From Escherichia coli (GTDB lineage: Bacteria > Pseudomonadota > Gammaproteobacteria > Enterobacterales > Enterobacteriaceae), in assembly GCF_003790525.1 (NCBI RefSeq), contig NZ_CP033635.1: a stretch of 64,000 nt of DNA; one strand, 5' to 3'. Positions within the stretch are counted from its first letter, which is position 1, and each line of letters begins with the position of its first letter. Of this stretch, positions 62,651 to 63,801 are shown one piece after another. Both the position numbers and the translations under genes were made by a program. The notes under the pieces were generated by a model. That model saw nothing but the letters and a program-made list of their open reading frames with translations. It was not told the origin of the DNA and did not search any database.

Positions 62651-63157
62651 TTATTTTTTGATTTTTGCCTTCAGGCGTGTCCACAGGAAAATGCAAACTG
62701 CGGTATATACCCGTGTGATAAACAACAGTTTAAGGCTGAAATACTCTCCTGCCTCGCTGGCATTCGTTTCAAACATAGCGAAAAGAACACTCTGCGAGAA
62801 CTCATGACTATAAATAAAATAATAACAGAGTGCTGTCAGTGACGTAGTCCAGAGAATAATACCGACAACCGCTGCAATAATTTTTATCCGTTCTGGAAAA
62901 AGAAACACGGGTATCCGCCACAGGGAGCTGAATAACAGTGAATCTCGTATTCCATTTATTCCACCGTATCCGGTGCTGAAGATAATCACCTGCAGCAGGG
63001 TGGAAAAGATAAAGTATCGCCCCCGTGCGCTCCGGCTGAAAGCAGGTCTGCTGTTTCCGGCATTTAAATGTATTGACCATCTCCCGGTAAAATGTAATAA
63101 ATCCCCCGTTACCGGAAAACCGATGAACAGAATTCGGACAGAAAATGAGTTCCTCAG
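62651..63157 (-). pseudogene. Remnant of a phosphoethanolamine-transferase-like (EptA/B-type) gene, N-terminal membrane domain only
   Basis: Frame containing ..GINGIRDSLLFSSLWRIPVFLF..VLFAMFETNASEAGEYFSLKLLF..WTRLKAKIKK* resembles the N-terminal transmembrane domain of EptA-family enzymes and stops before any sulfatase domain. The region upstream is not a clean ORF. Family assignment is from memory of motif patterns. Confidence 0.35.
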
Positions 63158-63801
63158 TTACCTGTTGCGTTTCCCCCGGTCTGATGAGCCAGAGACACAA
63201 TGGTCTGTACCGTTCTGTTGATATTAAACCGGTATTCGATATCTTCTCTGGCGCTGGCAACCATCATCCTGAAGCGTTCCGGGCGGGACAAAAAATCCCG
63301 AAGCGCACTGGTCCATGCAGTCATATCTCCCACAGGTAAAAGTGTTCCTGTCACATTTTTCTGAATGGCATCCGGGATCCCGCCAGTCTCACTGGCAATA
63401 ACGGGAACACCGGAGGCTGACGCTTCAGCCAGGACCATGCCAAATGCCTCATTTTTCAGAAGGCATGATAGCACACTGGCAACCCGGTATATCGGTAACG
63501 CCGGGAAAACAGCACCAGCCATGAAAACATCACCACTCATTCCCAGTGATTCAATCTGCAGGCGAAGGCGTTCTTCGTATTCCTCACGACCAGCGCCCAC
63601 CACGAGCCATCGAAATACTTTCCCTTCCATCTTCAGTTGGTGCAACACCCGGAGCATAAATTCATGCCCTTTCTCGGGACGCAACATACCCACCTGGACA
63701 ATCAGCGGGATATTGCCCGCTGATTCTGTCCATCCCTGAATATGCGGAGGTAACTGTTGCCTGACTTCTCTGTGTAATACAGAAACGATGCCAGCATATC
63801 A
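63154..63801 (-). pseudogene. Group-1 glycosyltransferase fragment (C-terminal domain), apparently frameshifted upstream
   Basis: In-frame sequence ..NIPLIVQVGMLRPEKGHEFMLRVLHQLKMEGKVFRWLVVGAG...NEAFGMVLAEASASGVPVIASETGGIPD.. carries the GT1/GT4 EX7E-type motif. An in-frame stop at 63799-63801 and GT-like N-terminal sequence in another frame (..PDLVICHSGHDSNIAGL..) suggest disruption. Confidence 0.5.

Follow-up and report, generated by a model that had tools for sequence, protein, structure and literature searches.

At the downstream end of a 64,000-nucleotide stretch of Escherichia coli DNA (the window; NCBI RefSeq assembly GCF_003790525.1, contig NZ_CP033635.1), foreign DNA begins directly behind the core gene ynjA, and the first genes beyond its integrase gene and terminator hairpin are, on the opposite strand, the remains of a cptA-type phosphoethanolamine transferase gene and of a glycosyltransferase family 4 (GT4) gene. 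A frameshifted polysaccharide deacetylase pseudogene, with a −1 change near its 3′ end, comes next, just outside the window. We place at about 0.9 the probability that this locus holds the decayed, nonfunctional remains of one copy of a mobile cassette of four envelope-modification genes, and that they form the first cargo in a P4-integrase island of 72 kb inserted in the 9-bp spacer between ynjA and ynjB. The identity of the cassette was settled by DNA-level homology to annotated intact genes, and the lesions were mapped against two intact references, the chromosomal copy of strain LH50-c and the copy on plasmid pO157. The NCBI Prokaryotic Genome Annotation Pipeline (PGAP) flags all three genes (deacetylase, GT4, and cptA) as pseudogenes.

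The cptA remnant (62672–63073, minus strand) retains codons 1–143 of the 573 codons of an ecf3-type gene, as judged by tblastn with pO157 Ecf3 (74% identity to residues 1–143, E = 7e-64) and by the NCBIfam CptA models. Its start codon, ATG in both pO157 and LH50-c, is ATA here (63073–63071), and relative to pO157 it lacks about four codons, in frame, at each of two places. Homology to the LH50-c and pO157 copies stops sharply at 62672, 29 bp from the integrase hairpin at 62614–62642, in agreement with the original prediction that a transferase remnant lies on the opposite strand immediately after the integrase terminator. The 21 nucleotides at the junction (62651–62671, minus strand; AAGGCAAAAATCAAAAAATAA) are unrelated to cptA and supply six codons and the TAA at 62653–62651, and the minus-strand frame is open from 63157 down to this stop. 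Codons 144–573 (430 codons), comprising the remaining membrane helices and the whole catalytic sulfatase domain, have been lost. In Pfam searches the open reading frame (ORF) at 62651–62989 matched PF08019, EptA_B_N (E = 1.1e-5, 25.8 bits, cut-off 22.3), and the sulfatase profile PF00884 was absent from the fragment. The PF08019 match is what had been expected of an EptA/B-like N-terminal remnant; NCBIfam, however, assigned the fragment to CptA rather than to EptA or EptB (NF012179, E = 4.8e-46, profile positions 12–131 of 556), so the gene is better described as being of CptA/EptC type. The fragment scored far below the curated cut-offs of NF012179 and NF007933 (157.6 bits against 900 and 155.9 against 404) because the gene is truncated; pO157 Ecf3 scored as a full-length CptA with 1061 bits. 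In strain 135, which carries the same island, PGAP describes the gene as a phosphoethanolamine transferase domain-containing protein, incomplete and missing its C-terminus.

The GT4 (ecf2-type) pseudogene spans 64099–63154 on the minus strand and thus starts beyond the end of the window. Its N-terminal part, codons 1–111 (63767–64000, minus strand), was 93% identical in tblastn to residues 1–111 of the LH50-c GT4 and contains an internal stop at codon 78, where GAA (Glu78) has become TAA (63868–63866). Its C-terminal part, residues ~161–364 (63154–63785, minus strand), was located by tblastn (90% to the LH50-c GT4) and by the map of insertions and deletions. The two parts meet at the junction of a frame-shifting 164-bp deletion that removed codons ~106–160; the junction (63775–63785, minus strand) lies inside the retained repeat copy TTTCTGTATTA. 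In the intact LH50-c gene the 11-bp direct repeats TTTCAGTATTA and TTTCTGTATTA bracket the segment deleted here, and the deletion is therefore of the microhomology or slippage kind. Farther along, a −1/+1 pair at ~63470/63456 changed the sequence VVMPSENEAFG, which is kept in both references, to LSCLLKNEAFG, and a further −1 at ~63177 altered the last residues. The ORF at 63154–63693 matched PF00534 (E = 9.9e-27) and PF13692 (E = 3.5e-23); PF13439 was not detected by Pfam search in the GT4 ORFs, and this, like the missing PF00884 match, fits truncation and disruption. The gene accordingly lacks a continuous two-domain GT-B frame with an intact conserved motif, and for strain 135 PGAP gives it as a frameshifted glycosyltransferase family 4 protein with an internal stop. 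Strain B771 carries, in addition, an intact element of the IS3 family of insertion sequences (IS) within the N-terminal part of the GT4 pseudogene (positions 5871–7084 of the sequence extracted from that strain), which is further decay after spread.

These results bore out the earlier call of a frameshifted group-1 glycosyltransferase, on which the profile, the mapped frameshifts, and PGAP agree. Of the four profiles proposed as checks, PF08019 and PF00534 thus found their targets and PF00884 and PF13439 did not. Both of the in-frame stops noted before are present, the TAA that closes the cptA frame and a TGA at 63801–63799, which is in frame with the ORF at 63693–63154 and forms its upstream bound. 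The extent of 62651–63801 given at that time needs correction, however, because the GT4 pseudogene runs on in another frame to 64099, and a 150-aa ORF at 62808–63260 (minus strand), which overlaps the cptA remnant and the end of GT4 in a third frame and has no Pfam match, is most likely a chance ORF.

The same lesions were found at the same site by ynjA in 29 of 5,426 complete E. coli genomes, with 99.9–100% identity over 2.8–3.4 kb, and PGAP makes the same pseudogene calls in 29 RefSeq genomes; the last 2.8 kb of the window is 100% identical in at least 20 complete RefSeq E. coli genomes. The carriers came from chickens, pigs, and humans on several continents. When the window and seven carrier genomes were aligned, there were 0–3 differences in 2,772 bases and all lesions were held in common. 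Single-base insertions or deletions such as those at ~63177, 63456, and 63470 are the kind that sequencing or assembly errors can yield, and if they were errors the genes might be intact. We give this explanation a vanishingly small chance: 29 complete genomes, each assembled independently and together drawn from several countries and hosts, have the truncation, the TAA, and the 164-bp deletion within sequence that is 99.9–100% identical, from which it follows that the lesions are not sequencing errors, and a truncation that takes out 430 codons and a whole gene is beyond any base-calling error.

By homology, the three pseudogenes are a decayed copy of a deacetylase-GT4-cptA-lpxM cassette of the type of the pO157 ecf1-4 operon. 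Order and strand of the first three genes have been kept; there is no lpxM, and the cptA breakpoint is followed closely by the integrase hairpin. The intact cassette is present, at ~84% nucleotide identity (83–86%), on ~500 plasmids of the enterohaemorrhagic E. coli (EHEC) type, for example between espP and stcE on p86-24-1 of O157:H7, and the intact order is present also in a few chromosomal islands. In pO157, ecf1 encodes a polysaccharide deacetylase, ecf2 a lipopolysaccharide (LPS) α-1,7-N-acetylglucosamine transferase, ecf3 a homologue of an invasion-associated membrane protein of E. coli K1, and ecf4 (msbB2) a second lipid A myristoyltransferase; the operon is expressed from a thermoregulated promoter with intrinsically curved DNA and acts on lipid A and LPS (PMC9420067; PMC2811833). 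For the copy described here the promoter region falls outside the window. The K1 protein is YijP, now named EptC/CptA. The likeness to ecf1-4 includes gene order, orientation, 84% nucleotide identity over the cassette, and, in addition to that of the cptA remnant, protein identities of 80–86% for the parts of GT4 (~85% overall to Ecf2). Unlike ecf1-4, the copy here is chromosomal and island-borne, has no ecf4/lpxM and lacks 75% of ecf3, and what is left consists of pseudogenes.

The nearest relative, at 94–95% nucleotide identity, is the chromosomal cassette of E. coli LH50-c and Ch1 (NZ_CP100500.1), which is collinear with the locus from a yebF-like gene through cptA codon 143. In the LH50-c copy, in contrast, the deacetylase, GT4, and lpxM genes are intact, cptA is itself frameshifted, and the flanks are a tetratricopeptide-repeat (TPR) gene and IS110 rather than an integrase gene. 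Synonymous divergence (dS) from the LH50-c copy is uneven, at 0.035 for the deacetylase and 0.123 for GT4 (window-equivalent 63154–64920), which suggests a recombination mosaic within the cassette. Strain Ch1 (NZ_CP127316.1) holds both the decayed copy in the ynjA island (1004020–1006820) and a second copy of LH50-c type with lpxM and the TPR gene (2470441–2474444). A homologous deacetylase-GT4 pair is found in the SfpgdA(shf)-Sfgtr4(capU)-virK-msbB2 loci of Shigella pWR100 and of pAA from enteroaggregative E. coli (EAEC), the GT4 being ~62% identical in amino acids to CapU/SfGtr4. Glycosyltransferase activity has been demonstrated for SfGtr4, and CapU is truncated by a frameshift in EAEC (PMC7355660). 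The third gene of those loci, however, is virK and not a phosphoethanolamine transferase gene; as the third gene here is of cptA type, we assign this copy to the ecf branch.

The original prediction had likened the arrangement to the left end of the K-12 element KpLE2 at leuX, where intB is followed by the opposite-strand pseudogene yjgX, at a different chromosomal site. The broad layout is indeed the same as that of the KpLE2 (PR-Y) left end, with a P4-family integrase gene followed by a decayed opposite-strand gene of the phosphoethanolamine transferase family, and the site does differ. That the locus is a relocated homologue of the KpLE2 end is nevertheless extremely unlikely, and we rejected it. 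A blastn search of the window end against the K-12 leuX region detected no similarity at the nucleotide level; the integrase shares only 40% amino-acid identity with IntB; and the cptA fragment had no tblastn match in the leuX region, yjgX aligning only with residues 238–393 of intact Ecf3 (29% over 156 aa), that is, with the sulfatase domain that has been lost here, so that any homology is at the level of the family. Moreover, KpLE2 has neither GT4 nor deacetylase neighbours, its attachment site (the tRNA-Leu gene leuX) and adjacent genes are different, and the closest relatives of the integrase (85% nucleotide identity) adjoin tRNA-Phe (pheU), not leuX. The resemblance is an analogy in layout rather than a sign of common descent, and the correct name for the remnant is ecf-type, not KpLE2-like.

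The gene order upstream of the insert is that of K-12, xthA-ydjX-ydjY-ydjZ-ynjA. In the window the ynjA stop codon at 61226–61228 is followed by foreign DNA instead of ynjB, which at the empty site of K-12 begins 9 bp past ynjA. The left island junction, the core of attL, is TTCTTAAGGAG (61222–61232, plus strand), which takes in both the stop codon of ynjA and the ribosome-binding site of ynjB. When this junction was aligned with the empty site of K-12 and with the right-hand junction of strain 135, TTC(T/C)TAAGGAG was present at both ends of the island and once in K-12: in strain 135, where the P4-integrase island is a 71.8-kb insert exactly between ynjA and ynjB with 11-bp repeats at its ends, the left end reads TTCTTAAGGAG and the right end TTCCTAAGGAG, and the single copy in K-12 is identical to TTCTTAAGGAG. 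A tRNA scan of 57000–64000 found none, and an Rfam scan of the junction gave no match; the island attachment site is the ynjA stop and ynjB ribosome-binding site and not the 3′ end of a tRNA gene. In strain 135 the cargo includes sitABCD, iucABCD-iutA, sodC, an ibrB-like pair, two group II introns, many IS fragments, and a CP4-type yeeU/cbtA end, and by our own count ~44 of its ~82 annotated coding sequences are flagged as pseudogenes. The sitABCD and aerobactin genes lie at 20674–36034 of the strain 135 extract; as iucD is frameshifted there, aerobactin synthesis may be lost in that strain too.

The earlier suggestion that the island is old and eroding has to be divided. The pseudogene count leaves little doubt about the erosion; age needs qualification, because the left end of the island is only 0–0.11% divergent among the eight carriers compared (the window and seven genomes), whereas the adjacent 2 kb from ydjZ to ynjA differs by 0.9–4.5% (17–90 bases), the one exception being F11 and B771, which are identical. 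Divergence in the flank persists as close as 15 bp to the ynjA stop codon (~20 bp from the junction), and the carriers have between them five or more alleles of the YnjA protein. An island that was ancient between ynjA and ynjB, decayed in situ, and was inherited vertically would account for the heavy erosion, with about half of its coding sequences pseudogenes and many IS fragments, and for the 5–8% nucleotide divergence from the nearest intact-type copy. We consider such a history unlikely, in view of the near-invariant island end beside divergent flanks, the closeness of the flanking differences to the junction, the number of YnjA alleles, and the presence of the island in only 29 of the 5,426 genomes. 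The same contrast between island and flanks indicates that the decay predates a recent spread; most simply, the decay of the cassette came first, and the island would then have entered several E. coli backgrounds at the same site.

Several points weigh against the account of a dead cassette that spread on a mobile island. We infer the activity of the integrase and the independence of the integrations, and homologous recombination through very short flanking stretches is another means by which the island could move. The nearest reference, LH50-c, has a frameshifted cptA, and the direction of some of the small insertions and deletions in the cptA remnant could be assigned only against the more distant pO157 gene. 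The ratios of nonsynonymous to synonymous divergence from the nearest copy are raised (deacetylase 0.78, GT4 0.22; 0.11 in comparisons of intact with intact copies); they are consistent with relaxed constraint and speak for decay, although they are built on few substitutions (23 and 43). Finally, ORFs of 112 aa (GTG at 62989) and 179 aa (GTG at 63693) are still open and in principle translatable. These two ORFs, together with the invariance of the sequence among carriers, are what could be expected if residual reading frames had been kept for a new role, for example as a small cptA N-terminal membrane protein or a stand-alone GT-B C-domain. The invariance is, however, equally high in noncoding and clearly dead parts and is therefore attributable to recent spread, not to selection; the native cptA start codon has been lost, and the conserved GT4 motif VVMPSE has been destroyed; the only promoter-like site upstream in the proper orientation is a single weak match (63998–63969) inside the dead N-terminal part; and the IS3 insertion in strain B771 has had no consequence for the presence of the island. 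We regard a new role for these frames as very unlikely and retain the view that the whole cassette copy is dead.

How the island came to use a site outside a tRNA gene may be reflected in the DNA next to the junction. The island arm beside attL (window 61222–61260) reads GGAGGGTACTACCTTCACTTC and the homologous arm of the pheU-type island, at the 3′ end of tRNA-Phe (4960–5020 of the sequence extracted for that island), reads GGGCACCACTTTCACTTC, with a match at 15 of 18. The arm thus appears to contain a degenerate tRNA-Phe 3′ end (GGGTACTACC against GGGCACCAC), which hints that the integrase lineage moved from a tRNA to a non-tRNA site. It is possible, if on balance doubtful, that the integrase lineage was retargeted from tRNA-Phe to the non-tRNA sequence TTCYTAAGGAG and that the eroded 72-kb sit/aerobactin island is still mobile and has recently entered several divergent backgrounds. 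For an excised circular form, the predicted attP junction would contain ...ATTCCTAAGGAGGGTACTACC... A search of one literature library found no paper on an island at ynjA.

An intact cassette encodes a polysaccharide or peptidoglycan deacetylase, a GT4 enzyme, a CptA-type transferase, and the LpxM2 lipid A myristoyltransferase, and remodels the envelope by deacetylation, addition of a core sugar, CptA-type addition of phosphoethanolamine, and secondary acylation of lipid A. In the copy at ynjA none of the three genes should be able to yield an active enzyme, and the locus would add nothing to the modification of LPS or peptidoglycan. The lesions would be older than the spread, in which the integrase would have inserted the island at TTCYTAAGGAG in several E. 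coli lineages. The dead genes probably persist as hitch-hiking DNA because they are linked to an island with useful genes for iron and manganese uptake and an intact integrase gene.

For annotators, the practical consequence is that these genes, which cannot modify LPS, should be counted neither among phosphoethanolamine transferases nor among loci relevant to colistin or virulence. Their pseudogene status is already in the public RefSeq annotation, and the locus is a case of ordinary gene decay, although it serves as a clean illustration of how nonsense mutation, microhomology deletion, and truncation turn genes into pseudogenes. Only the non-tRNA attachment site and the apparently recent spread of the island are mildly novel. 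That isolates from poultry, pigs, and humans, whose backbones are divergent, share the eroded sit/aerobactin island at ynjA-ynjB in nearly base-identical form has some epidemiological interest.

Some neighbouring features and minor observations are added here. The island integrase is an intact P4-family tyrosine integrase of 395 aa (61416–62603, plus strand; annotated as WP_001218736.1 in carrier genomes) with the Pfam domains Arm-DNA-bind_3, Phage_int_M, and Phage_integrase and a match to NCBIfam PRK09692 (E = 2.6e-89). An integrase relative that shares the terminator region (strain CM2, H280) was examined and set aside, as the genes downstream of it are unrelated. The TPR gene behind the pheU-type integrase is 73% identical to the one beside lpxM in LH50-c; an ancestral arrangement int-TPR-lpxM-cptA-GT4-deacetylase can be put forward as a suggestion only, and no genome was found to carry it in full. 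At the host locus, carriers F11 and B771 have both lost 37 bp from the core gene ydjY (at about window position 59319–59355; 1119–1759 of the sequences extracted from these strains), which puts the gene out of frame; in the window itself it is intact. The GC-rich hairpin that we take as the integrase terminator was detected in a scan for terminator-like sequences and folds with a ΔG of −26.4 kcal/mol (z = −3.33); it possibly terminates transcription in both directions. In strain B771 the 7-nucleotide loop of this hairpin (window 62625–62631; about 4397–4403 of the strain's extracted sequence) is exactly inverted, from TGCAGCG to CGCTGCA, with the stem unchanged, and this inversion accounts for the sole three differences between that strain and the window across the 2,772 bases.
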